Origin: a virus
Lineage: Duplodnaviria; Heunggongvirae; Uroviricota; Caudoviricetes
Length of the DNA stretch: 64,000 bases
IMG/VR virus record: IMGVR_UViG_3300037461_001229
Coordinates: 1 to 64,000 of that record
Reading direction: 5' to 3' (one strand)
The notes under the pieces were generated by a model. That model saw only the letters and a list, made by a program, of their open reading frames with translations. It did not search any database and was not told the DNA's origin. A program made the translations under genes and the position numbers. This document shows positions 2,650 to 49,539 of the stretch, one piece after another; within the stretch, counting starts at the first letter, position 1, and the number at the start of each line of letters is the position of its first letter.

Positions 2650-2833
2650 TGGCACGTAACCCATCAGCTCACGTCTTTGTCCGCAAGCCGCGTAAGCGCA
2701 GGCCGTATAGGCACTCCAAGAGCCCGAATAAGCATCTTTCTCAGAAAAAATACGTCGGGCAGGGAAAATAATTAAAGGAATACTTGTTTTTCTGAATTAT
2801 TTGTTTCATATTTGTGTTATTATTAACAACAAT

Positions 2834-3736
2834 ATGAAAACATTTGACTCTGTACTGTCGTTATTCCTTCCCTATATCAAGATGCAGGTAGGGGATAAAT
2901 CCTATGCGTCATACGTAGGAAAGAATAAGGTCTTCAGTGAGTGGTTGTCCTCTGCCGGGCTTGACCAGATTTGCATTTCGCAAATCACGAATCAGAATAT
3001 AGCCGATTTCTTTGTTTACCTGGCCACAGAGAAGGGCCTGGATAGGACTACCTGTCAAAAGTACTACCTTAATATCAGGAAAGTTTTCAGTTATGCCCAC
3101 CAAAGAGGGGAGATAGAATCGATACCATTCTCCCTTGTTGTATTCCCACAGAAGAAGGAAGATAAGTCTGCAGGGGTCATACCACAGGATCATATGAGGG
3201 TATTGATGGAGACAATTAAAAAAAAAGATAAGCAGCTATACCTTGCCTGTATGACTGAGTTCTACTGTTTTATTCGCCCCGGGACTGAGCTACGCCTGCT
3301 AAAGGTATCGGATATAGACCTTAATAACGGTACTATCCAGGTAGGATCAGACCATGCTAAGAACGGACATAAAAGGATAGTTACTGTCCCAAATCAGCTT
3401 ATTGAACTATTTAAGGAATACGGTATTGATAAGGCTGAGAAGGGGATGTATGTCTTTGGGCGGAGCAAGAGACCAGATACCGCCCCTTGCAGTGTCAATA
3501 TGCTCAGGTACCGCTTCAATAAGTACCGCAATAAACTAAAAATGGCACGACAATATAAACTATATTCGATGAAGCACAGCGGCGCCACACTTCTCCATAA
3601 CTCTAACCAGGTATCACTAAGGGATATGATGGACCAGTTAGGGCATTCACGTATGGAGGCTACACAGAGGTATATAAAAAAACATGCGGGGATAATCAAC
3701 CCCCGCATAAAAGAGAACTTCCCCAACCCATATTAA
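2834..3736 (+). CDS. int: tyrosine-type site-specific integrase
   Basis: N-terminal SAM-like core-binding domain; C-terminal catalytic region with HSGATLL...R...H..RY-like arrangement (HSRMEATQRYIKKH); typical Bacteroidota phage integrase architecture. Confidence 0.85.
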   Translation: MKTFDSVLSLFLPYIKMQVGDKSYASYVGKNKVFSEWLSSAGLDQICISQITNQNIADFFVYLATEKGLDRTTCQKYYLNIRKVFSYAHQRGEIESIPFSLVVFPQKKEDKSAGVIPQDHMRVLMETIKKKDKQLYLACMTEFYCFIRPGTELRLLKVSDIDLNNGTIQVGSDHAKNGHKRIVTVPNQLIELFKEYGIDKAEKGMYVFGRSKRPDTAPCSVNMLRYRFNKYRNKLKMARQYKLYSMKHSGATLLHNSNQVSLRDMMDQLGHSRMEATQRYIKKHAGIINPRIKENFPNPY

Positions 3737-18190: not shown

Positions 18191-19138
18191 TTAAAAAATA
18201 AAGTCCTCCATATATCTTATTGCTTTCCTTCCTGTTAGTATAGACTTATCAGTCATCTGCGGGCGTATAAAATTAATAAAATAATCGATACTCATTTTTG
18301 CCTCATTATACATAAAGAGCGCCCTTATTGATGTTGCTGAAGATATTCGCGGATTTATCTCCAGCAGCTTAGGCATGCCGTCCTGCATCCTGAATTGGAA
18401 GTTGGTGGGACCAATGGGCTTGAATATCTTGGCTAGCTCGATTAAAACATTACCAAAATTCCTGTCCTCTACCTCTGCCTCCTGAGTAAATCCCTCTTTG
18501 GATAGTTTTCTTTTTAGTGGGAAATAATCTACCAAGCTGGATTTCTTATCGAAAAAACCAGATACCGTGTACTCCTCTTCTTCTGTTCCTATAATGGGCT
18601 GTATCATAAGATCGCATCCCCGTATCTTATCCTGATAAAACCCAAAGTCCTTTTCGTCTTTTATTTTTATTATCCCACGGGAACCATAACCATGCCTGGG
18701 TTTTAGGAGAAAGGGGAAGGGATAGGGACTATCTCTGGTTCCGATTACGGTTGGGATAGCGTATTGCGGGCTATTATCCATGAGTTTCTCATAGAAAGCC
18801 CACTTATCATAGCACAGGTCAATAAGCTCACTGTTATTCAAAAGGGGGAATGCTCTTGTAGATAGCAAAACATTTCTTGCTTTATTCCACTTATACATAT
18901 CACATTCTATGCTTGGTATTATCATATCAACATGGTATTTGTCTATGATAGTACATAACTGCTCTATATAACCAGGATGTTCGGTAGGAAGTATCTTCTC
19001 TACATAATCGCAGAATGCCGTAGCTATAGAGTAATCATATATTGTTGTCCCTATGAGAAGATGATCGGTATCAGCAAGAGATTTTAGTATACCATAACCC
19101 ACTACGCCCGACGCACCGGATACCAGAATTGTTCTCAT
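18191..19138 (-). CDS. ATP-grasp domain enzyme
   Basis: LLKPRHGYGSRGIIKIKD ... KLLEINPRISSATSI, the conserved ATP-grasp C-terminal motif (E-x-N-x-R). Confidence 0.65.
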   Translation of the reverse strand: MRTILVSGASGVVGYGILKSLADTDHLLIGTTIYDYSIATAFCDYVEKILPTEHPGYIEQLCTIIDKYHVDMIIPSIECDMYKWNKARNVLLSTRAFPLLNNSELIDLCYDKWAFYEKLMDNSPQYAIPTVIGTRDSPYPFPFLLKPRHGYGSRGIIKIKDEKDFGFYQDKIRGCDLMIQPIIGTEEEEYTVSGFFDKKSSLVDYFPLKRKLSKEGFTQEAEVEDRNFGNVLIELAKIFKPIGPTNFQFRMQDGMPKLLEINPRISSATSIRALFMYNEAKMSIDYFINFIRPQMTDKSILTGRKAIRYMEDFIF

Positions 19139-19662
19139 AATACAACATCTCCTTCCTGATAAAACAAGCTTCTATCGGAAAAATAAATAACCGGGTCATT
19201 GTCACGGATAGCCCCCCTTAACATCCTATAGGCATCCTGCGGAGATGTCGGGGTGACCACCTTTAGGCCGGAGATCATACGAAACATATCGTGGGGTCTA
19301 TCAGAATGCTGAGGACCCATACCTTCCATTTCTGCACACATTATCGTGACAGGCAGATCAATATTATGCATGGATCGCATTTTCGAAGCTACATTTACTA
19401 TCTGGTCCATTGCCATGTACAGGAAGTTAGCAACAGTCAGGTCTACAATGGGGCGTAATCCGGTCATAGACGCACCTATAGCCATGCCTACGATAGTATA
19501 CTCCATCAGGGGAACGTCTATTACCCTGGAGGGAAATTCTTCGTATAAGCCCCCCGTATATCCATAAAGATTATATCTTATGTCTTCCCCAAATAAGACA
19601 ACTGAATCGTCAGATTTTAACTCCTGGTATAATGCCTCTCTTATAGCTTCTCCGTATTTCAT
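19135..19662 (-). CDS. TPP-dependent dehydrogenase E1 beta subunit, N-terminal (pyrimidine-binding) domain only
   Basis: MKYGEAIREALYQELKSDDSVVLFGEDI ... typical E1-beta/transketolase Pyr-domain start; 175 aa, roughly half of a normal E1 beta; ATGA overlap with ATP-grasp gene. Confidence 0.6.
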   Translation of the reverse strand: MKYGEAIREALYQELKSDDSVVLFGEDIRYNLYGYTGGLYEEFPSRVIDVPLMEYTIVGMAIGASMTGLRPIVDLTVANFLYMAMDQIVNVASKMRSMHNIDLPVTIMCAEMEGMGPQHSDRPHDMFRMISGLKVVTPTSPQDAYRMLRGAIRDNDPVIYFSDRSLFYQEGDVVL

Positions 19663-20498
19663 TGTTCTATAGATTTAAACGCATCTTCTACTAGCTCCAT
19701 TTCCTGTTCTATAATATGACCAATGGCATAATAGCCAATAGGGTCTTCGTTTTCCCGAAAATATTGCGCCACGATCTCGTTTCGATAACCTGTCTCCTTC
19801 ATGCGTTCATAGGCCGCCCCTTCTTGATGTTCACGGAACCTGTGTGTATTTACTTCCAGTAGATAGGGCCTATTCTCCCTCACGCGCCCTATCGCCTCTT
19901 TCGCTGCCGTATTCACCTCAACTACATTCTGACCATCAACCTCCCAATAGTCCATCCTATAGGCCGAAGTGAATTCTTCCAGATTAATATGGGTTGTATT
20001 GATAGTAGTCACGGCTACATGATTGTTTTCTAAAACAAAAAGAACTGGCAATCCCCATCTAGATGAAATATTCATACACTCATGGAATGTTCCCTCATTG
20101 ACTGCTCCATCTCCAAAGAAGACACAAACCACCCGATTTTCTTTCTTAAACTTAGAGGCATATGCCATCCCGCAGGCGAGAGAAAGTCCAGACCCGACGA
20201 TTGCGGTAGATAAGATAAACCCAAGAGAGGGGTCATTGACATGCATTGATCCTACACCATGAACTATCTGGCGTACAAGTCTCTTCAGGTCGGTACCGCG
20301 GGCTATGATATGACCATGAGACCGGTGGTTGCCTATAATATAATCATCTTTTCCCAAGGCGGAACAAACTCCGACAGAAACAGCCTCCTGTCCTATACAT
20401 GAATGAACCGGACCTTTTATTAATCCCTTTAATTTATATTCAGAAACCTTTTCTTCAAATAGTCGTATCCGAACCATCATCCTTAATAAATCATTCAT
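19659..20498 (-). CDS. TPP-dependent dehydrogenase E1 alpha subunit (acetoin/pyruvate dehydrogenase E1-like)
   Basis: LLRMMVRIRLFEEKVSEYKLKGLIKGPVHSCIGQEAVSVG ... GDGAVNEG ... NN, a TPP-binding motif (GDG...N). Confidence 0.7.
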   Translation of the reverse strand: MNDLLRMMVRIRLFEEKVSEYKLKGLIKGPVHSCIGQEAVSVGVCSALGKDDYIIGNHRSHGHIIARGTDLKRLVRQIVHGVGSMHVNDPSLGFILSTAIVGSGLSLACGMAYASKFKKENRVVCVFFGDGAVNEGTFHECMNISSRWGLPVLFVLENNHVAVTTINTTHINLEEFTSAYRMDYWEVDGQNVVEVNTAAKEAIGRVRENRPYLLEVNTHRFREHQEGAAYERMKETGYRNEIVAQYFRENEDPIGYYAIGHIIEQEMELVEDAFKSIEQ

Positions 20499-21157
20499 AT
20501 AAGCGTATATTTAGTTAACATAGTTCTGATGTCTCCCGGGCTGTGATTCATAATAACGTCTATGATAGATAAGTTAGGCAGATTTTCATCAGACTTCAAG
20601 AAAAATAAATCTATCCCCTGTTGTTTAAATTCCTCCTTGTCATATAAAGACTGGCCACCTATAGCATTAACATAAGATGTAGCCTTAAGACGCTTACAGA
20701 TATCTATAACCTTATCTTTCCCATGCAGGGAACAGTCCTTTTCTATTTTTGAGGAGATGATAAAGTTAATATCAATACCTAAATATCCGAAAAGAATCTG
20801 GTGTGTCTGAAGTATGTAGTTAAAGAGATTATCGCATTGAGAATGGAATATCTCATAAATAACCCAATGTGCTTGTTCAAAATAAGGATGATTAGAATAT
20901 GCCTGCACAAACGTCTTATACAACTTTTGCCTATTTGCGCCCACCTCTATCTCATTTATCTTCTTAAAAGAGCTTACTCCACGCAACTCAAGAGTAAATC
21001 TATAATTATTCCTATTAAGCTGTATATTATTCCTATTTATCCAACCCTGCTTAATGTAAGTAACATCATCATAATAAACAAAAGTATCTACTGCTTTCAT
21101 TAATTGAAAGTATCCCAGGTAGGGAAGAAAATATGGTTGCATTATACCCAGCCTCAT
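20495..21157 (-). CDS. WbqC-like family protein
   Basis: N-terminus MRLGIMQPYFLPYLGYFQLM is the hallmark WbqC-family start. Confidence 0.65.
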   Translation of the reverse strand: MRLGIMQPYFLPYLGYFQLMKAVDTFVYYDDVTYIKQGWINRNNIQLNRNNYRFTLELRGVSSFKKINEIEVGANRQKLYKTFVQAYSNHPYFEQAHWVIYEIFHSQCDNLFNYILQTHQILFGYLGIDINFIISSKIEKDCSLHGKDKVIDICKRLKATSYVNAIGGQSLYDKEEFKQQGIDLFFLKSDENLPNLSIIDVIMNHSPGDIRTMLTKYTLI

Positions 21158-21780
21158 GTCTTATATACTGGGAATTTAGACAGGTCTGGATATGGTAATT
21201 CTATGTCTTCCATATCTCTCTTAGTTCCATCCTGGTTATAAAACCCAAGCATCTGCTGTAGTCCTATAGCGGCCAGAATATGAGGGAGATAATAATTATG
21301 GCCTAACATATCAAGATTATCATCATGATACGAGCATTCCCTCCTCCCACTATAACGAAATCTCTTAAGCCATAAATAGGCAGTATAATCATCGGTAAGT
21401 ATAGCACCTCCCTTGCCTATCTTAAGGCGCTTCCATTGTCCCGTGAAAGACAAGCACATGAATGTACCAGGGATATACATATCGGCGGTAAATCTAAGCG
21501 CCGAATCCCATACCCGAGTTGGTTTTAATTGATATGCACCTTTTAGTAATCGCGGGGATGGCTCAAAGACAACCTTTCCTCCAGCCCATATTATTTCGCA
21601 GGGCACGGAAGGATATGTATGGGAAGGAATGGTTATTTCCTTGCCCTTTATATCCTCATACATCAATGCCATAAAAAGAGCATTGCTCTGATTATCTACG
21701 GTCACACAATAAGGAGCCCCGGTGTAGTCCGAGATCATCTCCTCAAATGCTTTGGTTATGTCATGTGGATTCATGGGCAA
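21154..21780 (-). CDS. DegT/DnrJ/EryC1/StrS-like aminotransferase, compact form
   Basis: FTGQWKRLKIGKGGAILTDD matches the PLP-lysine region (F..H..K....GEGG...T.D); only 208 aa so possibly truncated. Confidence 0.45.
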   Translation of the reverse strand: MPMNPHDITKAFEEMISDYTGAPYCVTVDNQSNALFMALMYEDIKGKEITIPSHTYPSVPCEIIWAGGKVVFEPSPRLLKGAYQLKPTRVWDSALRFTADMYIPGTFMCLSFTGQWKRLKIGKGGAILTDDYTAYLWLKRFRYSGRRECSYHDDNLDMLGHNYYLPHILAAIGLQQMLGFYNQDGTKRDMEDIELPYPDLSKFPVYKT

Positions 21781-22436: not shown

Positions 22437-22742
22437 ATGTCAGAAAGAATAGGCGCAACAAAATTATTAGTTAAAGAACTGCCAAAGAAAGAAGAAGTAC
22501 GTGCCAGTGGTCTTATTGTCCCCAACCAGGTTAAAGGAGAACCATCTGCCCTTAGTGTTGTGGTGATGACCGGAAAAGGTACTGCCGCACTACCCATGGA
22601 TGTTAATGTTGGTGATAAGGTGCTCCATAGCCCGCATGCCATACTTAAAGTTGTCATCCCAGACCGGGAGGAGACTAAAGACTTACCGTTTTCGGGCGAA
22701 CTAGGTCTTCTGGACTTGAAGGATGCGCTTCTGGTCTTTTAA
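22437..22742 (+). CDS. groES: co-chaperonin GroES homologue
   Basis: KLLVKELPKKEEVRASGLIVPNQVKGEPSALSVVVMTGKG...VNVGDKVLHSP aligns with GroES mobile loop, G-I-V-P, VVAVG-G and VKVGD-VLF blocks. Confidence 0.6.
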   Translation: MSERIGATKLLVKELPKKEEVRASGLIVPNQVKGEPSALSVVVMTGKGTAALPMDVNVGDKVLHSPHAILKVVIPDREETKDLPFSGELGLLDLKDALLVF

Positions 22743-27750: not shown

Positions 27751-28197
27751 TTATTTGACAATATTTTTAAGTTTTGTGATATAGCCCTTATCCTCAGCAT
27801 ACCCTATCTGGTGCAGGAAGGCGTAATAATCACCCCCGCTATAGTACAAGTCCTGCCATAATTTATAATCCCTTATACAGTCCTCATAAGAACTATAGAG
27901 GGCATGATTGTTTTGTGATCCTATGGCAGTAGTCTCCCTTAGCGGGGCATAGCGCATGCCAAAGAGGTTTTTATTGAGCCTGTAGAGATCGCTTTTTAAC
28001 CATCCTGTTTCTAAGATGATCTGTGACCGGACAATAGCCGGATGCATTATCTGGTATTTATGCATCAGAATCTCAATATCCTGCCAATCCAAATACAGGA
28101 TCGCACCTGATTCTTTAATAGGGATAGTCCTGAATTCTGGTGCGAATCCCGCTATAGGGGTCAGGCTAAAAATAAGTAGTAGTAATAGCTTTTTCAT
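27751..28197 (-). CDS. secreted glucosaminidase-family peptidoglycan hydrolase (endolysin)
   Basis: signal peptide MKKLLLLLIFSLTPIAG; AIVRSQIILETGWLKSDLYRLNKNLFGM matches the mannosyl-glycoprotein endo-beta-N-acetylglucosaminidase/FlgJ-type catalytic block (Q..LE(S/T)GW....N.FG). Confidence 0.7.
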   Translation of the reverse strand: MKKLLLLLIFSLTPIAGFAPEFRTIPIKESGAILYLDWQDIEILMHKYQIMHPAIVRSQIILETGWLKSDLYRLNKNLFGMRYAPLRETTAIGSQNNHALYSSYEDCIRDYKLWQDLYYSGGDYYAFLHQIGYAEDKGYITKLKNIVK

Positions 28198-28597
28198 GGT
28201 TTTTAGTGATTTCTGATTGATTTAAGCCTATCTATAGGCAGGGAGGTATTTATCTCCCCCAGTTGCACCCATAGATTCAACTACCCGATAATAAACACTC
28301 CTTTTTGCTTATCATAGGTGACATTTTCGCTCATTAGATACTCAGCTACTTTAGCTATTGTCTCCGGTGAGGCATTGCAGATTAATTCAGTCAGGCAGAT
28401 TAATTCAGTCAGGTTATAGGTCATTTGTTCAATGTCCATCTGATCCGGTGAGTTGTCTGGCTCTGTTGATTGCGGACTCATACGATAACCGCCCATAGTA
28501 CCACCAGTTTTGGTGGTGATCTTAGTTTTGATGTTATTAGATACTGTTCTCATTGCTTTGTGTATTTATGTGATTTGACAAATATAGTTATTTAATG

Positions 28598-29620
28598 CTA
28601 TTCAGCAACAATAAACTTACCGCCCTGTAGTTTATACCATGTATCAGCTTTGAGTTTTTTACCGTCTATTTTAGCGGTTTTGACGGTTTTTAAAATCCAC
28701 TCATTATCACAATATTCCAATTCAGATAGGGTGATATAAGAATTTAGGGATGCTCTCGCCTTACTATCTACGCCAAAAGCCACAGCAAGAGAGTCCCTGC
28801 CTGATGTCTCGGCCAGACCCCCGTACCCTGAGTTAGAGGCCAGACCCCTGTCCCCTGAGTTAGAGGCCAGACCATAGTTCCCTGAGTTAGAGGCCAGACC
28901 ACTGTACCCTGAGTTAGAGGCCAGACCATAGTTCCCTGAGTTAGAGGCCAGACCACTGTCCCCTGAGTTAGAGGCCAGACCATAGTCCCCTGAGTTAGAG
29001 GCCAGACCACTGTACCCTGAGTTAGAGGCCAGACCATAGTCCCCTGAGTTAGAGGCCAGACCATTGTACCCTGAGTTAGAGGCCAGACCCCTGTCCCCTG
29101 AGTTAGAGGCCAGACCATAGTCCCCTGAGTTAGAGGCCAGACCATAGTTCCCTGAGTTAGAGGCCAAACCCCTGTACCCTAAGTTAGAGGCCAAACCCCT
29201 GTACCCTGAGTTAGAGGCCAAACCCCTGTACCCTGAGTTAGAGGCCAGACCCCTGTCCCCTGAGTTAGAAACCCTCTTAACACCCCTTCTCTTAAAAACA
29301 GCCTCAATGGCTAGTTTACAGAATTCTCCTATCCCGACCCTTGCACCTATCTTAATTTTAGAGACAGCAATCTTACTGTCTTTGTTATCAGTATCAGCCT
29401 CGCCAAAGCCTTCTACTAGATGAAATACACTATCGGACGGATAGTAGTATCTTAAAACATCTAATGGCTCGGTACAGAAGTGAAAGCCATTTTTCGTACA
29501 TCTTACTGGTTTTTCATCGGTCTCGTATGTCTTACCTTCCTCATACTGAAACCCCTTACAGGTCATACCCTTATTAAAGGCCTTTACGCCTGTGATTACT
29601 TTTTCTGTTGATTTTTTCAT
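28598..29620 (-). CDS. tandem 9-aa repeat protein, 18 x S-G-[DYN]-[RYNSG]-G-L-A-S-N
   Basis: translation shows 18 consecutive near-identical nonapeptides between a Cys-containing N-terminal domain (KGMTCKGFQYEEGKTYETDEKPVRCTKNGFHFC) and a C-terminal domain; start trimmed to internal MKKSTEKV. Confidence 0.55.
   Translation of the reverse strand: MKKSTEKVITGVKAFNKGMTCKGFQYEEGKTYETDEKPVRCTKNGFHFCTEPLDVLRYYYPSDSVFHLVEGFGEADTDNKDSKIAVSKIKIGARVGIGEFCKLAIEAVFKRRGVKRVSNSGDRGLASNSGYRGLASNSGYRGLASNLGYRGLASNSGNYGLASNSGDYGLASNSGDRGLASNSGYNGLASNSGDYGLASNSGYSGLASNSGDYGLASNSGDSGLASNSGNYGLASNSGYSGLASNSGNYGLASNSGDRGLASNSGYGGLAETSGRDSLAVAFGVDSKARASLNSYITLSELEYCDNEWILKTVKTAKIDGKKLKADTWYKLQGGKFIVAE
28795..29270. 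repeat. 27-bp tandem direct repeat array (~18 copies, consensus cctgagttagaggccagaccNNNgtNc)
   Basis: direct reading of sequence; period 27, variation confined to about 4-5 nt per unit. Confidence 0.9.
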
Positions 29621-29639
29621 AATGATAATATTTAAGTGA

Positions 29640-30032
29640 TTAATTAATCTCTCTATAGAATGCCTCGCCATTAGAGGCCACACCAATGCACCCAACCTCA
29701 GTCAGTCCATAGCCATCCCTGAGTATATCCAGAAACTCATTCATTATGGTAGTCTCTTTTTCAAGGAGAGCCTGATATTCATCTTCGGTCAGACCGTCCT
29801 CCTGATAATCATAGTCTGCCTCAATATAGTCTATACATGCCCCGCTATAGTAAGCAAAAGTCATAATAGCTATAAGAGTCTTAACATCTGGCTGTTCCCT
29901 TAGTTCATAGGAAGGATAATTTCTGTTGTACTCTCTTGTCATCCGGTCTATTACCGGATAATTACCGCCTTCGTAGTCCTCATCTGTGACCACTATACAG
30001 CGATTTTTGTAGCAGAAATTTGGCGTGCTCAT
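29640..30032 (-). CDS. hypothetical protein
   Basis: 130-aa acidic ORF. Confidence 0.25.
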   Translation of the reverse strand: MSTPNFCYKNRCIVVTDEDYEGGNYPVIDRMTREYNRNYPSYELREQPDVKTLIAIMTFAYYSGACIDYIEADYDYQEDGLTEDEYQALLEKETTIMNEFLDILRDGYGLTEVGCIGVASNGEAFYREIN

Positions 30033-34658: not shown

Positions 34659-34666
34659 TAACTTTG
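34659..34666 (+). promoter_or_regulatory. Bacteroidota -7 element upstream of pdxH
   Basis: taactttg. Confidence 0.4.
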
Positions 34667-34672
34667 ACGCAA

Positions 34673-35257
34673 ATGATAAAGAATCCATTTACAAGATTTA
34701 AGGTCTGGTATAACTTAAGAACTAAGACCTATAGCGGGGATGCATCATATATGATCCTATCCACTGCTGATTCTTCCGGCGATGTGTCATCCAGGGTGGT
34801 ACTACTGAAATCATTTGACGAGGATGGTTTTGTCTTCTACACCAACTATAATAGTAAGAAAGGAAGGCATCTTGATGATAACCCAAGGGCAGCGCTGCTG
34901 TTCTATTGGCCCGAGCTGGATAAGCAGATACGTATAGAAGGGGATGTTGAGCGGGTACCGGAGGATGTCTCTAATGATTATTTTACCACCAGACCCAGGA
35001 TAAGTAAGGTTGGTGCTCATGCCTCAAGACAAAGCAAGGTATTAAGCAGCAGAATCAGGCTTATTTTCAGGGTGGCAAGATATATATTTAAATACCCCAG
35101 GGAGGTTCCGAGGCCGTTACACTGGGGTGGCTACCGGCTAAAGCCCAATATGTTTGAGTTCTGGGATAACGGCAAATATAGACTACATGACAGAACCCGC
35201 TATAGGCTCAAGGTTGGCTCAGTGGGATCGTGGGTTATTGAAAAACTTTATCCTTAA
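34673..35257 (+). CDS. pdxH: pyridoxamine 5'-phosphate oxidase
   Basis: RVVLLKSFDEDGFVFYTNYNSKKG...NPRAALLFYWPELDKQIRIEG...FEFWDNGKYRLHDRTRYR...WVIEKLYP aligns along the full length with bacterial PdxH including the C-terminal FW..G...RLHDR block; start moved from TTG 34664 to ATG 34673. Confidence 0.85.
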   Translation: MIKNPFTRFKVWYNLRTKTYSGDASYMILSTADSSGDVSSRVVLLKSFDEDGFVFYTNYNSKKGRHLDDNPRAALLFYWPELDKQIRIEGDVERVPEDVSNDYFTTRPRISKVGAHASRQSKVLSSRIRLIFRVARYIFKYPREVPRPLHWGGYRLKPNMFEFWDNGKYRLHDRTRYRLKVGSVGSWVIEKLYP

Positions 35258-35540: not shown

Positions 35541-35612
35541 GTGGCAGAGTGAAACGGATAATCATCAAAGACTCATAATCTTTGGATAGTGGGTTCGACT
35601 CCCATTGCCGCA
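35541..35612 (+). tRNA. tRNA-like element with CAT anticodon (Met/Ile2-like); imperfect, possibly pseudo-tRNA or att remnant
   Basis: manual cloverleaf: acceptor gtggcag/ttgccgc (2 GU), D stem gtga/tcat, perfect anticodon stem aaaga/tcttt with loop CTCATAA, T loop TTCGACT but only 4-bp T stem. Confidence 0.3.
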
Positions 35613-44290: not shown

Positions 44291-44335
44291 TTTCCATAAT
44301 GCACTAAATATGTATCTTTGCAGAAACAAGAAGAC

Positions 44336-46894
44336 ATGGCTCAGAAGAAGAAAGAGACCAAATTATCATTTGAGAAAGATTTACAGGTAGAAGAGGCGAG
44401 CAAGCTTGGCATACGCCCGGAAGAGATCATACGCAACTTTGAGGACGTTGGCCGGCTGCCGGATGATTTTAACCCCTATGGAGGCGGCTATACTATAGCC
44501 AGGTCTAAGTTCTTGGGCGATGAGCCTCCCCATGGCCAGTACTGTGGGGGAGACTTTAAGCTGTGGGAAGTTATTAACGACGGAGACCCGTCACTAACCC
44601 CGGTTTACTTTAGCATGCCCGAGCCGCCGACAGATAGGACATTGATCGATGGCTATGGGCTAGACCCTGATGAGCAGTACTTCCGCCGGATCGAACTACC
44701 GAGGAAATTTCGGTTGATCGAAACCAAGGCCCTACAAGACCTGGCAGAGATCGAGAAGAAGAACCGGCAAGAGACCATACAGGGTTATAAGTTCTATCTT
44801 AAGTTCTGGGAGATAGTAGAACAGGAGAGAGATAACCTGGAGGAGGAGCTTATATGGCTTAAAAGGGTATGGTGGTGGAGAACTTATGGTTATTGGTACT
44901 ATAATGACGGGGAGCCGGTATTCCTACCTCCCGACTATTACGACTTCCTTAATTTCTACTTTATAGAGGAAGCGGTCAGGTACCCGGAGTACCGTGATGA
45001 CGTCAGGCGTAAGTACTGTTACTCACGTTATCTAGAAAGCTGTACTGAGACATTCAAAGATTTCGATGCTAACGGTATGGCCAAGAAGAATGCCGATGGT
45101 AAGTACGAGATGGTTGACCTTGGCCGACGGTTATTCTTCGGGGATGTGGAGCCCAAGACTCGTAGGACGGGGGCCACACACGAGGCCGTCCATAAGATAT
45201 TAAAGGGAGCCATGACCCATCTCTCTTATTTCAGTACCATCATCTCTTTTGAGGGTAATAACGCTGAAGTCCACTATAAAAAGAAGCTCTTGCCGGCTTT
45301 CGATGCTTATCCTATGGTTCTGAAGCCTATATGGGAGGGGAATCGCAGGCCCAATATACTAAGGCTTGATGCGCCGCCCAATGTCTACCACACAAGAGGT
45401 CTTAAAAGTGCCATAGCTTACTCGGACTCAGGGGGGCTGTTCGCTAATGAGGGGGATAGGCTTAATGGGGTGTTAAATGATGAGCAAGGCAAAAGTCTCG
45501 GATCAACAGCAGACATCTTTGAGAGGTGGCACATCAACAAATTCACCATGTCTACGGGTATGGGTATCAACATCCTTAAGGGAGTATATGTCAAGAACCC
45601 AAGTACGGTGGAGGATATGGAATCAACAAGTACGCCGTACCATAAGCTCTGTGAGTTATCTAATTTCTATAGACGGGTACCGGTTAAGGGTCAGACCATG
45701 GAGGGCTTTGCCAGGATATTTTTGCCGGCCTATCTCAGGCTTGAGGGGTATATTGACCGATTTGGTAAGTCAGTGGTGGAGACGCCTACAGAGAGACAGA
45801 TAAGGCTGTCGCCGGATGCGATCTTTGCAGTAAGTAAGAAGGGAGCCAGGGAGACGATGCAGGCAGAGAGAGACGCACTACTTGCACTCAACACGCCTGA
45901 GTCTCTTGAGCTCTACCGTAGTATCCGCAGAAAATCCCCGTTTACCTGGGATGAATGCTGGTTGGGGTCTGCAGGTAATGCCGGCTATAATCTTGAGATT
46001 ATAGATAAGCGCATGGGGGAACTTAACCAGCTTAAGTCCTTTGGTAAGATGCCTTATCGTGTGGGTTATTTTTATCGGGACACCTATCCTGATGGGACAG
46101 TGCTCTGGAAAGACGATCCTAATGACATACGGTTCAGGATATCGATGATTCTCCCGCCGGAACTATCTAATCAGAGGGAGATGATCGAGGTATGGGATGG
46201 TCTTAACCAGAAGTTTATCCCGGGATGGCGCCCAAGGAATGGGCAGCGGTTCACTCTCGGGTGCGACCCCTTCCGAAACCTTAAGGCTATAGAGGTTAAA
46301 TCAATGAGCAAGGCGGGTATGAGGTCGAGCACGTCACGGCAGTCCGATGGTGGTATCGCTGTACTATGGGAGTATGACCCCGCTATAGATGGCAACAAAC
46401 CTAAAAAAGACTGGGATAGCTTTAAATTCGTTTGTACATACAGGCATAGGCCATTAACACAAGAAGCGTATTTCGATGATGTACTGATGTGTGCCCAGTA
46501 TTTCGGAGCTATGATCTATCCTGAGCAGAACGTGGAAGCATTCCTCGTGCACCTCTATAAGAGAGGTTATGGAGGCTATGGTCTGCATGACTTTGATATT
46601 ATGACCGGTAGGCCCAAGGCGCTTCCCGGGAGGTATAACGCTACTGAGACTAATCAGGATATGGTTCGTGAGATCAAGGATTATATTGAGTTTAGGGGGC
46701 ATGTCGAAGATCACGATGACCTGCTAGCAGAAATTAAGTCGTTCAGGGGCGTTGAGGACTTTACCAGGCTTGACCTTAAGACTGCTGCCGGTATGGCACT
46801 ACTTGGCTCTAAGTCCCGCCATAGGGAGATATTAGGAGATAATAAAAGTATTGGGCTAGATTTGGACGATATCTTCCCGGTGAGATATTATTGA
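44336..46894 (+). CDS. terL: putative terminase large subunit
   Basis: position immediately upstream of portal-scaffold-capsid block; deviant P-loop-like PKTRRTGAT; nuclease-like LGCDPF / EYDPA Asp motifs in C-terminal half; start moved to ATG 44336 downstream of -7 box 44313-44320. Confidence 0.5.
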   Translation: MAQKKKETKLSFEKDLQVEEASKLGIRPEEIIRNFEDVGRLPDDFNPYGGGYTIARSKFLGDEPPHGQYCGGDFKLWEVINDGDPSLTPVYFSMPEPPTDRTLIDGYGLDPDEQYFRRIELPRKFRLIETKALQDLAEIEKKNRQETIQGYKFYLKFWEIVEQERDNLEEELIWLKRVWWWRTYGYWYYNDGEPVFLPPDYYDFLNFYFIEEAVRYPEYRDDVRRKYCYSRYLESCTETFKDFDANGMAKKNADGKYEMVDLGRRLFFGDVEPKTRRTGATHEAVHKILKGAMTHLSYFSTIISFEGNNAEVHYKKKLLPAFDAYPMVLKPIWEGNRRPNILRLDAPPNVYHTRGLKSAIAYSDSGGLFANEGDRLNGVLNDEQGKSLGSTADIFERWHINKFTMSTGMGINILKGVYVKNPSTVEDMESTSTPYHKLCELSNFYRRVPVKGQTMEGFARIFLPAYLRLEGYIDRFGKSVVETPTERQIRLSPDAIFAVSKKGARETMQAERDALLALNTPESLELYRSIRRKSPFTWDECWLGSAGNAGYNLEIIDKRMGELNQLKSFGKMPYRVGYFYRDTYPDGTVLWKDDPNDIRFRISMILPPELSNQREMIEVWDGLNQKFIPGWRPRNGQRFTLGCDPFRNLKAIEVKSMSKAGMRSSTSRQSDGGIAVLWEYDPAIDGNKPKKDWDSFKFVCTYRHRPLTQEAYFDDVLMCAQYFGAMIYPEQNVEAFLVHLYKRGYGGYGLHDFDIMTGRPKALPGRYNATETNQDMVREIKDYIEFRGHVEDHDDLLAEIKSFRGVEDFTRLDLKTAAGMALLGSKSRHREILGDNKSIGLDLDDIFPVRYY

Positions 46895-47038: not shown

Positions 47039-47113
47039 CTGGGTGTTCCGCAGATGGCTATACGGGCCTCCCCTGGAAGGAGGTGTTCGGGGGTTCGAAT
47101 CCCTCTACCCAGA
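47039..47113 (+). tRNA. tRNA-Pro (TGG)
   Basis: manual fold: acceptor ctgggtg/tacccag, anticodon stem cctcc/ggagg loop CCTGGAA, T arm ggggg-TTCGAAT-ccctc. Confidence 0.55.
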
Positions 47114-47119
47114 CAATAT

Positions 47120-47191
47120 TGGCATATAGTTCAATGGTAAGAACGCACGGCTTATACCCCTGTAATTCTGGTTCGAGTCCAGGTATGCCAA
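47120..47191 (+). tRNA. tRNA with TAT anticodon (Ile2-like)
   Basis: acceptor tggcata/tatgcca perfect; D stem gttc/gaac; loop CTTATAC; T arm tctgg-TTCGAGT-ccagg. Confidence 0.5.
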
Positions 47192-47193
47192 CT

Positions 47194-47266
47194 GTGTACG
47201 ATGCTCGTATGGAAGAGTACCGGATTGTGACCCCGGTTAAAGGGAGTTCGAATCTCCTCGTACACC
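47194..47266 (+). tRNA. tRNA-His (GTG)
   Basis: acceptor gtgtacg/cgtacac; loop TTGTGAC; T arm gggag-TTCGAAT-ctcct. Confidence 0.6.
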
Positions 47267-47269
47267 TAT

Positions 47270-47343
47270 GCTCGGTTGGTGAAGTTGGCTAACACGCAGG
47301 ACTTTCAATCCTGTATTCAGGAGTTCGAGACTCCTACCGAGCA
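47270..47343 (+). tRNA. tRNA-Glu (TTC)
   Basis: acceptor gctcggt/accgagc; anticodon stem cagga/tcctg loop CTTTCAA; T arm aggag-TTCGAGA-ctcct. Confidence 0.65.
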
Positions 47344-47346
47344 CAT

Positions 47347-47417
47347 TGCCTAGTCGTATAAAGGCAGTACATCTGGCTTTGAACCAGGCGGAATTGGATC
47401 GTTACCAGTCTAGGCAT
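47347..47417 (+). tRNA. tRNA-Gln (TTG)
   Basis: acceptor tgcctag/ctaggca; anticodon stem tctgg/ccagg loop CTTTGAA; T arm attgg-ATCGTTA-ccagt (A54). Confidence 0.5.
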
Positions 47418-47448
47418 CAAATAAATTTGGAAATTAAAAATAAAGTAT

Positions 47449-47456
47449 TATCTTTG
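47449..47456 (+). promoter_or_regulatory. Bacteroidota -7 element (tRNA sub-operon 2)
   Basis: tatctttg. Confidence 0.5.
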
Positions 47457-47533
47457 CAGTGTAAAATAAAGTTAATGCAGAGCATAAAGAGAAATATGGT
47501 GAATATTGATCGTACAGGCGCAACCTTACGGAA

Positions 47534-47603
47534 GGGCATTCCCATATGATCTTTTAAGAGATTAGAAGTGGAATGCCCTCAGAGATGGGGGCATTCTTAT
47601 TTT
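47534..47603 (+). promoter_or_regulatory. attenuator-like leader: antiterminator gggcattcc/ggaatgccc versus terminator gaatgccc/gggcattc + TTATTTT
   Basis: 9-bp and 8-bp alternative helices sharing 47571-47578. Confidence 0.45.
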
Positions 47604-47673
47604 GGCGCATAGTCTAAAGGTACGACGCTTCTCTGATACGGAAGTAGTGATAGTTCGAGTCTGTCTGTGCCAA
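47603..47673 (+). tRNA. tRNA-Ile (GAT)
   Basis: acceptor tggcgca/tgtgcca; loop CTGATAC; T arm gatag-TTCGAGT-ctgtc. Confidence 0.55.
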
Positions 47674-47676
47674 CAT

Positions 47677-47755
47677 AGCGGGTTAGGCTGAAGGTGGTTA
47701 CAGCGCGGTCTCATAAGCCGTAACGTCGGGAGTTCGATTCTCTCACCCGCTACCA
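47677..47755 (+). tRNA. tRNA-Met (CAT), CCA encoded
   Basis: acceptor agcgggt/acccgct; loop CTCATAA; T arm gggag-TTCGATT-ctctc; 3' ACCA present. Confidence 0.55.
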
Positions 47756-47756
47756 T

Positions 47757-47831
47757 GGGGGATTAGCTCAGAGGCAGAGCGGCATCCTGTTAAGATGAGG
47801 GTCGGGTTTTCAATATACTCATCCCCCGCCA
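47757..47831 (+). tRNA. tRNA-Asn (GTT), CCA encoded
   Basis: acceptor gggggat/atccccc; D stem gctc/gagc; loop CTGTTAA; T loop TTCAATA. Confidence 0.55.
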
Positions 47832-47834
47832 AAG

Positions 47835-47906
47835 GTCCTTATGGTGTAATGGAGAGCACACGGGTCTTCTAAGCCCTTAGTCAGGGTTCGACTCCTTGTA
47901 GGGACG
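47835..47906 (+). tRNA. tRNA-Arg (TCT)
   Basis: acceptor gtcctta/tagggac; loop CTTCTAA; T arm caggg-TTCGACT-ccttg. Confidence 0.55.
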
Positions 47907-47911
47907 CACAT

Positions 47912-47984
47912 AGCTCGTAGGTCAAACGGTTAAGATGTCACCCTGTCACGGTGTACGGAACGGGTTCAACTCCCGCACGAGCTG
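47912..47984 (+). tRNA. tRNA-Asp (GTC)
   Basis: acceptor agctcgt/acgagct; loop CTGTCAC; T loop TTCAACT. Confidence 0.6.
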
Positions 47985-47989
47985 CAAAT

Positions 47990-48061
47990 GGGACGTTAGT
48001 ATAATGGCTATTATTTCTGATTTGCACTCAGAAGATGAGGTTTCGATTACCTCACGCTCCA
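47990..48061 (+). tRNA. tRNA-Ala (TGC)
   Basis: G3:U70 Ala identity pair present; anticodon stem tctga/tcaga loop TTTGCAC; T arm gaggt-TTCGATT-acctc. Confidence 0.65.
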
Positions 48062-48066
48062 CTAAT

Positions 48067-48138
48067 GCGTCGTAGGTGTTGATGGTTGCATGTCAGTCTT
48101 CCAAACTGAGGGAGTGAATTCGAATTTCACACGATGCT
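48067..48138 (+). tRNA. tRNA-Gly (TCC)
   Basis: acceptor gcgtcgt/acgatgc; stem tcagt/actga loop CTTCCAA; T arm gtgaa-TTCGAAT-ttcac. Confidence 0.65.
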
Positions 48139-48142
48139 CTAA

Positions 48143-48215
48143 GTCCTCTTAGCAAAGCGGCGTATAGCTCCACCCTTTTAAGGTGGCGAGGATGGTTCGA
48201 CTCCATCAGGGGACA
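48143..48215 (+). tRNA. tRNA-Lys (TTT)
   Basis: acceptor gtcctct/aggggac; stem ccacc/ggtgg loop CTTTTAA; T arm gatgg-TTCGACT-ccatc. Confidence 0.65.
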
Positions 48216-48216
48216 C

Positions 48217-48291
48217 ACGCTCGTAGCATAATGGAAAGTGCACTTGGCAACGAACCAAGGTTATGTGAGGGTTCGATTCCTTCCGGGCGTA
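48217..48291 (+). tRNA. tRNA-Arg (ACG) with A33
   Basis: acceptor acgctcg/cgggcgt; stem cttgg/ccaag loop CAACGAA; 7-nt variable loop; T arm gaggg-TTCGATT-ccttc. Confidence 0.5.
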
Positions 48292-48296
48292 CATAT

Positions 48297-48368
48297 GCTC
48301 CACAAGCATTGTTGGCGATGCTCTCGCCTTGTAAGCCTGAGAGCGGGGTTCGATTCCTCGGTGGAGCT
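48297..48368 (+). tRNA. tRNA-Thr (TGT)-like with irregular anticodon arm
   Basis: perfect acceptor gctccac/gtggagc, D stem gcat/atgc, T arm cgggg-TTCGATT-cctcg; anticodon region ctctc-gccTTGTAAgcct-gagag folds either as 5-bp stem with 13-nt loop or as a mismatched canonical stem. Confidence 0.4.
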
Positions 48369-48371
48369 CAT

Positions 48372-48444
48372 AGCCTGATAGTGTAGTGGTTAAGCACGGC
48401 ACCCTTACAAGATGTTAGCTACAGTTCGACTCTGTATCGGGCTA
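48372..48444 (+). tRNA. tRNA-Val (TAC)
   Basis: acceptor agcctga/tcgggct; loop CTTACAA; T arm tacag-TTCGACT-ctgta. Confidence 0.6.
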
Positions 48445-48487
48445 CAAAAATAAATCCATAAAAGTTTGCATATTAAAAAATAATTAT

Positions 48488-48495
48488 TATCTTTG
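48488..48495 (+). promoter_or_regulatory. Bacteroidota -7 element (tRNA sub-operon 3)
   Basis: tatctttg. Confidence 0.5.
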
Positions 48496-48548
48496 TGGTA
48501 TGAAAAAACTATGGTGTTCATATAGTTCGTTTTTACTCTTGCTCTCGG

Positions 48549-48620
48549 GGCGAGGTAGTTGAGCTATATCCACTGCAGATATACAAGGAGCCTCGCCTAT
48601 AAAGCGGGGCTTTTTGTTTT
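48549..48620 (+). promoter_or_regulatory. attenuator-like leader: antiterminator ggcgagg/cctcgcc versus terminator gcctcgc-ctataaa-gcggggc + T-run
   Basis: alternative helices share 48590-48597; T-run ends one nt before tRNA. Confidence 0.45.
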
Positions 48621-48696
48621 GCTCTGGTAGTCCAATTGGCAGAATGACAACAGACTTAAACCCTGTCCAGTGTCGGTTCGAATCCGACTCAGAGCA
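48621..48696 (+). tRNA. tRNA with TAA anticodon (Leu-type anticodon, class I architecture)
   Basis: acceptor gctctgg/tcagagc; loop CTTAAAC; T arm gtcgg-TTCGAAT-ccgac; only 76 nt, no long variable arm. Confidence 0.45.
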
Positions 48697-48699
48697 CAC

Positions 48700-48772
48700 G
48701 CTACGGTAGCGAATTGGTATAGCACGGTGACTTAGAATCATCGGATTGTGGATTCGAATTCCACCCGTAGCA
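48700..48772 (+). tRNA. tRNA with TAG anticodon (Leu-type anticodon, class I architecture)
   Basis: acceptor gctacgg/ccgtagc perfect; stem ggtga/tcatc loop CTTAGAA; T arm gtgga-TTCGAAT-tccac; 73 nt. Confidence 0.5.
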
Positions 48773-48776
48773 CAAT

Positions 48777-48860
48777 GGAGGGTTCGCCAGCGGCCTGGCA
48801 ACTGGTCTTGAAAACCAGGATGCATCTGAAAGGACGGGGGATCGACACCTCAACCCTCCG
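48777..48860 (+). tRNA. tRNA-Ser (TGA), class II
   Basis: acceptor ggagggt/accctcc; stem ctggt/accag loop CTTGAAA; long variable arm; T loop ATCGACA. Confidence 0.6.
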
Positions 48861-48866
48861 CAATAT

Positions 48867-48947
48867 GGAAGTACTCCCAAGATGGTGAATGGGGCATGAC
48901 TGTAAATCATGTGCTTCGGCTGAGAGGTTCGAATCCTTATACTTCCA
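48867..48947 (+). tRNA. tRNA-Tyr (GTA), class II
   Basis: acceptor ggaagta/tacttcc; stem catga/tcatg loop CTGTAAA; variable arm gcttcggc; T loop TTCGAAT. Confidence 0.6.
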
Positions 48948-48990
48948 CGGGGGTTTATTAAACTTTTGTTATCTTTGTAAGAAAAAAAAT

Positions 48991-49386
48991 ATGTTTAATA
49001 ATGTAAAGAACACAAAGAAGCAGGGGGATATTGGAATGGGCATGGCAATAGGTTATTTTACTGCCCAGGGATATACGGTATTGATTCCTTTAACCGATAG
49101 TCAGGATTATGATTTGGTTATAGAGAAAAATGGTCTTTTAAAGAAGGTACAGGTAAAGACAACTTCGTATAAGACTCCTAATGGGATATTTAATATCAAT
49201 CTTAGCGTGAAAGGTGGGAATAGGTCTTATAATACCATAAAGAAGTTTAACCCTGATCTTGTTGATTATTTATTTATTTTTACATCTAATGGAGATATGT
49301 ATTTTATCCCATCTCCCCAAAATATTACGAGTCACCTGAATCTCGGTAAAAAATATCAGGACTTTAAAGTATTCATGGATGGTTGA
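48991..49386 (+). CDS. small PD-(D/E)XK-like nuclease candidate embedded in the tRNA array
   Basis: ORF 48889..49386 trimmed to ATG after -7 box 48970-48977; DYDLVIEKNGLLKKVQVKT gives D...E.K-like motif; 3' end overlaps tRNA-Ser by 10 nt. Confidence 0.35.
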   Translation: MFNNVKNTKKQGDIGMGMAIGYFTAQGYTVLIPLTDSQDYDLVIEKNGLLKKVQVKTTSYKTPNGIFNINLSVKGGNRSYNTIKKFNPDLVDYLFIFTSNGDMYFIPSPQNITSHLNLGKKYQDFKVFMDG

Positions 49387-49461
49387 CCGAGAGGTAAGGT
49401 ACAAGTTTGCTAAACTTAGGTTGGGATAAAACCCAGGGGGGATCGTTACCCTCACCCTCCG
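49377..49461 (+). tRNA. tRNA-Ser (GCT), class II
   Basis: acceptor ggatggt/accctcc (one mismatch); loop TTGCTAA; variable-arm stem tggg/ccca; T loop ATCGTTA. Confidence 0.5.
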
Positions 49462-49464
49462 CAT

Positions 49465-49535
49465 GGGCAATTAGTGTAATGGTAGCACGACAGCCTCCAA
49501 AACTGTTTGTAACTGTTCGAGTCGGTTATCGCCCG
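49465..49535 (+). tRNA. tRNA-Trp (CCA)
   Basis: acceptor gggcaat/atcgccc (one mismatch); D stem gtgt/gcac; loop CTCCAAA; T arm aactg-TTCGAGT-cggtt. Confidence 0.55.
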
Positions 49536-49539
49536 CAAT

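Follow-up and report, generated by a model that had tools for sequence, protein, structure and literature searches.

A phage gene family catalogued as DUF7666 encodes tandem nonapeptides in which two adjacent codons are hypervariable and the rest of the 27-bp unit is homogenised within each gene by concerted evolution, and its arrays gain, lose and reorder whole units between near-identical alleles. The member that was examined lies in a 64,000-nucleotide stretch (positions 1 to 64,000, here called the window) of IMG/VR record IMGVR_UViG_3300037461_001229, which derives from a virus of the Caudoviricetes. The gene is on the minus strand and its units encode S-G-X1-X2-G-L-A-S-N, where X1 and X2 are the variable residues. 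On balance, and by a small margin over even chances, we favour reading the product as a cytoplasmic phage accessory protein that would use a hypervariable recognition array as a host-takeover or anti-defence effector.

The repeat array in the window

A sequence-only reading of the window had described 27-bp direct repeats encoding this nonapeptide, and Tandem Repeats Finder, in-frame reading and a pattern search all bore this out. Tandem Repeats Finder returned a single array (28811–29269, period 27, 17.0 copies, 90% matches, score 673). The unit pattern TCAGGGNACNNNGGTCTGGCCTCTAAC, with up to 3 mismatches allowed, matched 16 times, always within the array, against 0.00 matches expected. The repeat feature is real and beyond chance. 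Read in frame on the minus strand, units 1–16 (29263 down to 28832) follow the consensus, with unit 4 beginning with L (TCA to TTA). The proposed count of 18 is reached only when the near-canonical unit 17 (28805–28831, SGYGGLAET) and the degenerate unit 18 (28778–28804, SGRDSLAVA) are included; 16 units are canonical.

The X1 codons are GAC, TAC or AAC (D, Y or N) and the X2 codons are AGG, TAT, AAT, AGT or GGG (R, Y, N, S or G). Outside these two codons the units differ at only two sites, one synonymous CTG/TTG and one TCA/TTA, and the scaffold is nearly invariant, as had been proposed. Between units of the window, the proportions of non-synonymous (pN) and synonymous (pS) differences were 0.42 and 0 at the X1 and X2 codons and 0.009 and 0.05 at the scaffold codons. 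Open reading frames (ORFs) running across the array in other frames are by-products of the repeat itself.

Two codons vary across the family

Among 92 full-length homologues the arrays contained 4–19 units (median 10) with the consensus S-G-[Y/D/N]-[S/R/Y/K/N/C]-[G/S]-[A/V/L/M]-A-S-N, and those of cultured phages contained 10–28. Within arrays (70 examined) the mean nucleotide diversity was 0.61 at the first position of the X1 codon and 0.25–0.37 across the X2 codon, while third positions of the scaffold reached only 0.046. Consensus units of different arrays differ at 0.6–0.75 of third positions. This third-position pattern indicates that the units are homogenised gene by gene, and that the constraint is on the protein and not on the DNA; in every lineage the X1 and X2 codons are exempt from this homogenisation.

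When units were compared by the Nei-Gojobori method, pN/pS was 2.8 for the two variable codons and 0.4 for the seven of the scaffold, a comparison between paralogous units under gene conversion and not a formal test. The pattern points to diversifying selection at X1 and X2. Diversification at defined positions, which had been suggested from the window alone, was thus recovered in 70 independent arrays with homogenised synonymous scaffold sites, and the variable positions were not fixed among homologues. Slippage alone does not explain diversity limited to two codons, and the earlier statement that this is not simple slippage stands.

X1 was nearly limited to D, Y and N; His, which is also one mutation away, occurred in only 7–8 of 850–958 units. 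The two residues were usually linked into a few unit types (median 4.5 per array; YQ, NR and DY in Pseudomonas phages), with significant linkage (p<0.05) in 32 of 60 arrays. The window has 7 unit types with weak, non-significant linkage (p=0.08). The earlier description of the variation as combinatorial holds only loosely. The order of unit types along arrays was statistically random, with no autocorrelation at lags 1–6 and no strong preference for particular neighbours.

Arrays gain, lose and reorder units

A public NCBI contig (L001) aligned with the window by blastn over 21 kb with 0 mismatches and one 27-bp gap, corresponding to one missing Y-R unit. Its protein (P0001) lacks one SGYRGLASN, while the JGI/IMG copy (P0387) has three, as in the window. 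Alleles of cultured phages are stronger evidence of turnover than this pair. In Pseudomonas phages YA3 and Flu_PA14_4 the regions encoding the N-terminal and C-terminal domains are 99.5% and 100% identical in nucleotide sequence, respectively, yet the arrays contain 28 and 27 units in a different order and include internal multi-unit duplications. Phages phi2 and P7869 have 16 units each, again in different orders. In ES18 and SEN22, flanks that are 93–94% identical enclose about 11 and about 22 units, respectively, drawn from different alphabets. The copy-number variation anticipated from the window was therefore seen both in the one-unit gap and in the 27 and 28 reordered units of the Pseudomonas phage alleles. 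A contingency locus, another of the earlier suggestions, is unsupported in the on/off sense because the unit lies inside the coding sequence and gain or loss of 27 bp never shifts the frame; the observed indel preserves it.

The array was also a break point in public data. Sequences ended inside it at 18 of 80 genome loci, at 5 of 8 IMG/VR loci and in several deposited phage genomes, including the linear ends of several that are described as complete. The array-broken loci were L039, L045, L056, L061, L063, L070, L072, L074, L076, L082, L084, L090 and L092–L097, and further broken records were L010–L015 and GenBank accession numbers MK511048, PP740689, MT740737, PP067092 and MZ089728. Since the arrays break short-read assemblies, copy numbers in databases are unreliable without long reads. 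In one further record, that of Vibrio phage 1.185.O (GenBank accession number MG592551.1, bases 27871–28674), a coding array is annotated as spacers 1–4 of a clustered regularly interspaced short palindromic repeats (CRISPR) locus, which is probably a mis-annotation.

Family membership and distribution

The protein matched Pfam DUF7666 (PF24703) over residues 9–101 (profile positions 1–93 of 95) with 110.8 bits against a cut-off of 27 (E=4.7e-32), as did all 112 of the aligned homologues. It also matched phrog_4433 over residues 3–222, spanning the N-terminal domain and repeats (E=9e-85), and phrog_27197 over residues 245–337, spanning the C-terminal domain and the last repeat units (E=4.2e-32). 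All three families are annotated as of unknown function, and the window gene adds one member to a catalogued but uncharacterised family.

Phage homologues with 30–45% identity were found in Pseudomonas phages phi2, P7869, YA3 and Flu_PA14, Salmonella phages ES18 (gp53) and SEN22, Acinetobacter phage fLi-Aba02, Blautia phage Montmirail, and Vibrio and cyanobacterial phages. The DUF7666 proteins of ES18 (gp53), phi2 (ALY08205), YA3 (QDB70960) and Montmirail (WAK79228) share with the window protein the three-part architecture, the C-terminal domain and the repeat S-G-X1-X2-[GS]-x-A-[ST]-N with its two variable positions. The window protein is a divergent member with the scaffold G-L-A-S-N and 17 units, probably from a phage of Bacteroidota. 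A word-indexed protein search gave 369 matches, a profile of the N-terminal domain reached 6580 clusters at 50% identity among 1.84 billion representatives, and one peptide pattern was found at 281 loci in species-representative genomes. These loci are in Bacillota, Bacteroidota, Pseudomonadota, Actinomycetota, Omnitrophota, Planctomycetota, Nitrospirota, Spirochaetota, Patescibacteria and others, and the family as a whole has thousands of members in over 10 bacterial phyla. One Omnitrophota metagenome-assembled genome contained four DUF7666 repeat genes (L018, L030, L056 and L026), the first three on a single 106-kb contig (JALNZI010000004.1) and each with a different array, and Prevotella sp. 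oral taxon 376 contained two.

Near-identical DNA was not found in the phage collection searched, and relatives in IMG/VR were at most 65% identical, most of them ending inside the array. An exact search of JGI metagenomes with the flanks, for further alleles of the window phage, gave 0 matches, and the ES18 and ECO95 genes had no match, near or distant, in complete Escherichia coli genomes. The searched literature contained no mention of DUF7666, and nothing relevant on nonapeptide or 27-bp prophage repeats or on ES18 gene 53.

Predicted structure

A structure predicted by AlphaFold2 from the 92-sequence alignment had a mean predicted local distance difference test score (pLDDT) of 78, with 85–95 for the N-terminal and C-terminal domains and 55–70 for the array. 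Each unit was modelled with one four-residue strand (L-A-S-N), and S-G-X1-X2-G formed a turn. Of the two folds raised in the sequence-only reading, the model favours a beta-solenoid, here with nine-residue rungs, and we hold this with moderate confidence given the pLDDT of the array. The collagen-like alternative was not borne out, the unit being G-x-x-G-x-x-S without Pro.

The Cys motif noted in the N-terminal domain is indeed conserved: C21, H47 and C49 do not vary, and a Cys is almost always present near position 41. With moderate confidence, the domain is predicted to have a fold like that of an ADP-ribosyltransferase (ART), which handles NAD+ or ADP-ribose, and the fLi-Aba02 homologue had been labelled 'putative ADP-ribosyltransferase' independently by its GenBank annotator. 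The His and Tyr that bind NAD+ may correspond to H47, which precedes a helix, and to Y59. The motif E68-x-E70 is common, yet it is absent from the proteins of ES18, the Pseudomonas phages (phi2) and some others. A Foldseek search of the PDB with the N-terminal domain gave nothing significant, its sequence profiles matched no ART family and no PDB entry, and the C-terminal domain had no sequence relative among PDB profiles. No sequence match to the window N-terminal domain was found for BC2332-like proteins (SCOP d.166.1.6), Arr, Tpt1/KptA, mono-ARTs of the PARP10/15 type, the phage anti-CRISPR protein AcrIF11 or T4 Alt, ModA and ModB. Unlike small ARTs, the domain lacks an invariant catalytic Glu and has an additional conserved cluster of Cys residues; Foldseek did not confirm the fold.

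In six homologues (P0023, P0144, P0176, P0192, P0238 and P0253) an additional domain of about 125 residues precedes DUF7666; NCBIfam identifies it as 'A1S_2505 family phage non-structural protein' (E down to 1.5e-43). Members of that family are mostly stand-alone phage proteins (at least 8000 matches), and 8 of the top 120 were fused to DUF7666. Some A1S_2505 members had sub-threshold matches to Pfam Macro (2 of 6 in one set and 7 of 45 in another, best E 4.9e-4). An NCBIfam 'ADP-ribose-binding protein' model also matched weakly (E 0.06), and PDB profile searches gave macroH2A and the uncharacterised proteins BT1257/2afc (E about 0.6–1). A deeper A1S_2505 profile searched against the PDB still gave only sub-threshold macro-like matches (BT1257, 2afc). 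Macro and ART domains are known to be paired, as in macro-PARPs and DarTG, and because of this pairing the fusion lends modest support to an ADP-ribose-related role.

Location in phage genomes

ES18 gp53 comes immediately after gp54, the N-like antiterminator; the annotated PL promoter and nutL lie upstream of it, and downstream there follow a putative terminator, cIII, kil and erf. The SEN22 homologue follows N and a superinfection-exclusion gene, while in phi2, YA3, Flu_PA14_4, P7869 and fLi-Aba02 the gene is on the cI strand, 2–4 genes downstream of cI. The Montmirail homologue is among replication genes. Neighbours at 89 loci included helix-turn-helix (HTH)/cI repressors, N6/N4 and C5 DNA methylases, single-stranded DNA-binding protein, RecT, ERF, RusA, DnaB and integrase; no conserved partner gene was found at these loci, the largest cluster of neighbours being generic HTH repressors (23 of 89). 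In none of eight annotated phages was the gene located in the structural module. The window gene belongs to a series of small minus-strand genes that had no match in PHROG; it is beside a glucosaminidase-type endolysin-like gene, and more than 11 kb from the terminase-portal-structural block, which is on the opposite strand. No signal peptide, transmembrane or hydrophobic segment was found in the window protein.

The early-region location and the lack of such segments speak against the receptor-binding, antigenic or virion role that had been suggested, the homologues being in early or lysogeny-replication regions. On genomic position and sequence features, the protein is best read as intracellular, non-structural and probably expressed from an early region.

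A tyrosine-integrase-like ORF was found at 2801–3736 on the plus strand, recognised by a hidden Markov model built from integrases beside homologues (E=1e-22). The window phage may therefore be temperate, its large tRNA set notwithstanding. An argument that the phage is virulent and that the protein thus cannot serve a lysogen was dropped in view of this ORF.

A putative recognition array

The favoured reading assigns three parts to the protein: an ART-like N-terminal domain of about 100 residues, a beta-solenoid of about 17 rungs and a small conserved C-terminal beta domain. The invariant L-A-S-N/S-G scaffold would form the solenoid core, and X1X2, in a glycine-flanked turn, would be displayed as an exposed ladder. 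Unequal recombination or slippage would add, remove and reshuffle whole 27-bp units in frame. This turnover would homogenise the scaffold, while selection would keep X1X2 diverse within a small alphabet (D/Y/N and R/Y/S/Q/C/K). Together, unit turnover and selection on X1X2 would make the ladder a recognition surface that can be rapidly re-programmed. It would most likely bind a macromolecule of the host or of a competing phage and bring the N-terminal domain to that target. We place low to moderate confidence in the binding role of X1X2 and in an arms-race function. An early host-takeover or anti-defence role is favoured by analogy with T4 Alt/Mod and AcrIF11.

The arrays of transcription activator-like effectors (TALEs) consist of near-identical repeats with two adjacent variable residues, the repeat-variable di-residues (RVDs), drawn from a small alphabet, and they are recombinogenic and hard to assemble. 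DUF7666 arrays likewise vary at two adjacent residues per repeat from a small alphabet. TALE repeats, however, are helical hairpins of 33–35 residues with a demonstrated code of one repeat per DNA base. The array of the window protein is near neutral. A bolder form of the favoured reading is that DUF7666 proteins are a class of programmable phage effectors that had gone unrecognised, in which RVD-like di-residues (such as DY, NR, YQ and DR), one pair per rung of the beta-solenoid, would choose the target, shuffling of units would rewrite the choice over very short evolutionary times and the ART-like head would be delivered; we regard this as doubtful.

The WD40, TPR and ANK repeats of fungal NOD-like receptors (NLRs) show high internal conservation, concerted evolution, number polymorphism and a few positively selected surface sites, and this pattern has been read as a means of generating recognition repertoires (PMC1805685, PMC4986451). 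The evolutionary pattern of DUF7666 arrays is like that of these repeats, which include the WD40 repeats of Podospora HET-E and HET-D (PMC1805685, PMC2873952, PMC4986451), in that concerted evolution, number polymorphism and a non-synonymous excess at few sites were all found. The likeness is one of analogy and not of homology: the fungal repeats have 34–42 residues, fold as a propeller or helical solenoid, are eukaryotic and are attached to a NOD/STAND NTPase, while DUF7666 is a phage gene with a 9-residue repeat, a predicted beta-solenoid and no NTPase.

Other repeat proteins were less similar. The nonapeptide beta-roll of repeats-in-toxin (RTX) proteins was rejected as a model because its consensus G-G-x-G-x-D-x-U-x fits no cyclic register of the window unit, none of which aligns Gly, Asp and a hydrophobic residue correctly; the HemolysinCabind family matched 1 of 112 members (E=0.07). 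The same motif, GGxGxDxUx, is characteristic of the RTX beta-roll and of the related Ca2+-dependent antifreeze beta-helix of MpAFP (3p4g), and the window protein, which lacks it, is also not secreted. Curli CsgA and two-sided beta-solenoids have no sequence relationship to the window protein, and CsgA repeats have about 19–23 residues and are secreted and amyloid-forming. The idea of a DNA mimic was rejected on the net charge of the array, which is −2 and near neutral.

Several observations weigh against the favoured reading. The pN/pS contrast is drawn between units subject to gene conversion, and the linkage of X1 and X2 in the window is weak. The difference between the window and L001 may be an assembly artefact, because it falls in a run of identical units, and breaks inside arrays are common in public contigs. 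An array pLDDT of only 55–70 leaves the solenoid uncertain. No catalytic Glu is invariant, so that the head may lack activity or be non-canonical, and the invariant Cys/His set could instead be a structural zinc site. The link to macro domains is sub-threshold throughout, with no match significant alone. Neither a conserved partner gene nor a clue to the target emerged from the 89 loci, and the PADLOC-DB v2 defence models gave 0 families at E≤1.

Alternative explanations

A serious rival, though we think it unlikely, is that the protein acts in prophage defence or superinfection exclusion, with the array, expressed in the lysogen, sensing proteins of an invading phage and the ART-like head serving as a toxic or abortive effector. 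The position near cI and sieB would suit this role, as would the NLR-like array and an ART-type head. The region downstream of cI holds lysogen-expressed defences such as rex, and it is here, on the cI strand, that the Pseudomonas and Acinetobacter genes lie; the SEN22 gene is beside that for superinfection exclusion. Conserved repeats with hypervariable sites are a hallmark of fungal NLR sensors, and the integrase-like gene on the window contig is what a temperate phage might carry. Against this, PADLOC found no match, ES18 gp53 is in the N-dependent early lytic operon and not on the cI transcript, the Montmirail gene is among replication genes, and neither an NTPase/STAND module nor an immunity partner was found.

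We consider it improbable that the array is a neutral, unstable spacer, a linker of variable length in which the diversity at X1 and X2 is a founder remnant or an assembly error. The random order of unit types and the breaks and identical-unit run described above fit such a spacer. Against it, variation recurs at X1 and X2 in all 70 independent arrays despite synonymous divergence between their scaffolds, and the elevated pN/pS is confined to these codons. X1 is limited to D, Y and N with His rare, the 9-residue period is held strictly over up to 28 units, and homogenisation under drift should wipe out diversity.

Still less probable is a disordered sticker-spacer array, with Tyr and Arg as the stickers and Gly/Ser/Asn/Ala as the spacer, that would assemble into condensates or amyloid-like structures. 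The residues at the variable sites (Y, R, D, N, Q, S) and the low pLDDT of the array are consistent with it, as is the strongest match among PDB profiles, which placed the array (residues 120–272 of the protein) on the disordered nonapeptide C-terminal repeat (CTR) of Schizosaccharomyces pombe Spt5 (8qsz_Y, E 8e-14). Whole-protein PDB profile matches reflect repeat composition only (Spt5 CTR, collagens), and the Spt5 match is a coincidence of period and N-S-G composition and not homology; it serves as a reminder that nine-residue repeats can be disordered. The invariant scaffold in an exact 9-residue register without indels, the purifying selection on scaffold codons, the regular strand modelled in every unit and the confidently modelled N-terminal and C-terminal domains, which are consistent with capping, all argue for an ordered array.

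The virion fibre suggested in the sequence-only reading, whether receptor-binding, antigenic or collagen-like, is very unlikely. PHROG tail-fibre and collagen-like minor-tail families did match the repeats (E 1e-13 to 1e-5), as did Pfam Collagen (PF01391; 38.8 bits against a cut-off of 27.2), but the tail-fibre and collagen matches span only the Gly/Ser-rich repeats, and NCBIfam collagen-adhesin models scored 47–58 bits against cut-offs of 325–500. A collagen helix is impossible because every third triplet of the unit begins with Ser; in many homologues the nonapeptide contains a single Gly, and there is no Pro. The gene was never in the structural module of the eight annotated phages, that of the window is among small early-type genes, and the protein has no signal peptide.

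Targeted hypermutation by a diversity-generating retroelement (DGR) or similar system, or a DNA-level element such as iterons or a CRISPR-like array, can practically be set aside. Variation centred on AAY-type codons (N/D/Y) recalls DGR targets and one GenBank record annotates a homologous array as CRISPR spacers, but the 64-kb window has no second (template) copy of the unit, reverse transcriptase not having been searched for exhaustively. In the NAC codon the second A is constant, where a DGR would be expected to mutate the two adenines alike. Arrays share their amino-acid scaffold while third codon positions are saturated between them, which places the constraint on the protein, and the units are contiguous and in frame without spacers.

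Gene model and other features of the window

The mechanical ORF list gave one long minus-strand ORF in the region, 28598–29695, with a TTG start, and this was the interval described in the sequence-only reading (Table 1). The gene is real, but the true start is almost certainly the ATG at 29620, as judged from the same start in the identical NCBI contig L001 and in homologues; the first 25 codons of the longer ORF overlap the gene at 29640–30032. The motif A-E-[TV]-S-G...S-[IL]-A, with which the array ends, also closes the arrays of homologues. Within the window there was no paralogue, and consensus scans for a promoter or terminator of the repeat gene's own were at background level.

Table 1. 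Coordinates of the DUF7666 repeat gene and its parts in the window
Feature	Position	Strand	Description
Coding sequence of the repeat protein	28598..29620	minus	340 aa; ATG at 29620 (MKKSTEK...), stop 28598–28600; member of DUF7666 / PHROG 4433
Spurious 5' extension of the mechanical ORF (TTG start)	29621..29695	minus	Overlaps upstream gene 29640–30032; homologues begin at MKK...
N-terminal DUF7666 domain	29318..29596	minus	aa 9–101; invariant C21, G45, H47, C49, P52, Y59, G73; predicted ADP-ribosyltransferase-like fold
Helical linker between N-terminal domain and array	29264..29317	minus	About aa 102–119; AlphaFold2 helix 97–110/112
16 canonical 27-bp / 9-aa units, S-G-X1-X2-G-L-A-S-N	28832..29263	minus	Predicted 4-residue strand (L-A-S-N) and 5-residue turn (S-G-X1-X2-G)
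Run of three Y-R units (units 2–4)	29156..29236	minus	Sole site differing from public contig L001 (one 27-bp unit)
Unit 17 (SGYGGLAET) and degenerate unit 18 (SGRDSLAVA)	28778..28831	minus	Transition from array to C-terminal domain
C-terminal beta-rich domain	28601..28777	minus	aa 282–340; conserved in the family; AlphaFold2 pLDDT 89–95

Directly downstream of the repeat gene, a small ORF (28281–28553) contains a perfect 18-bp tandem duplication at 28377–28413 (2.1 copies, encoding LTELIC LTELIC). The window includes 22 tRNAs, tRNA-Ile(TAT) among them, of which 21 are clustered at 47039–49536 on the plus strand between the terminase (44318–46894) and portal (49734–52100) genes and one, a tRNA-Met, is at 35541–35612. 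The portal is about 22% identical to those of Cellulophaga and Flavobacterium podophages. A block of sugar and aminosugar enzymes (ATP-grasp, a transketolase-like E1 pair, WbqC and a DegT aminotransferase) represents unusual auxiliary metabolism for a phage, and a Cpn10 co-chaperonin gene and a pyridoxamine-phosphate-oxidase-like gene were also present; the metabolic and Cpn10 genes are at 18191–21780 (minus), 22437–22742 (plus) and 34664–35257 (plus), with Pfam labels taken from L001.

Significance

Homogenised repeats with two diversified residues and fast turnover of the array are undescribed for DUF7666 in the literature searched, and these gene properties are shared by modules of recognition used in conflict in other systems, namely fungal NLRs and TALEs. 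The family is large and functionally blank, and its carriers include prophages of Pseudomonas, Salmonella, Acinetobacter and gut Bacillota and Bacteroidota. Taken with the early-region location and a possible ART-like head, these properties make DUF7666 a concrete candidate for screens of anti-defence and defence functions, and it is tractable in the cultured phages ES18, YA3 and phi2. If the bolder reading of programmable effectors is true, thousands of phages in more than 10 bacterial phyla would carry the viral equivalent of the repertoire generator seen in fungal NLR repeats.

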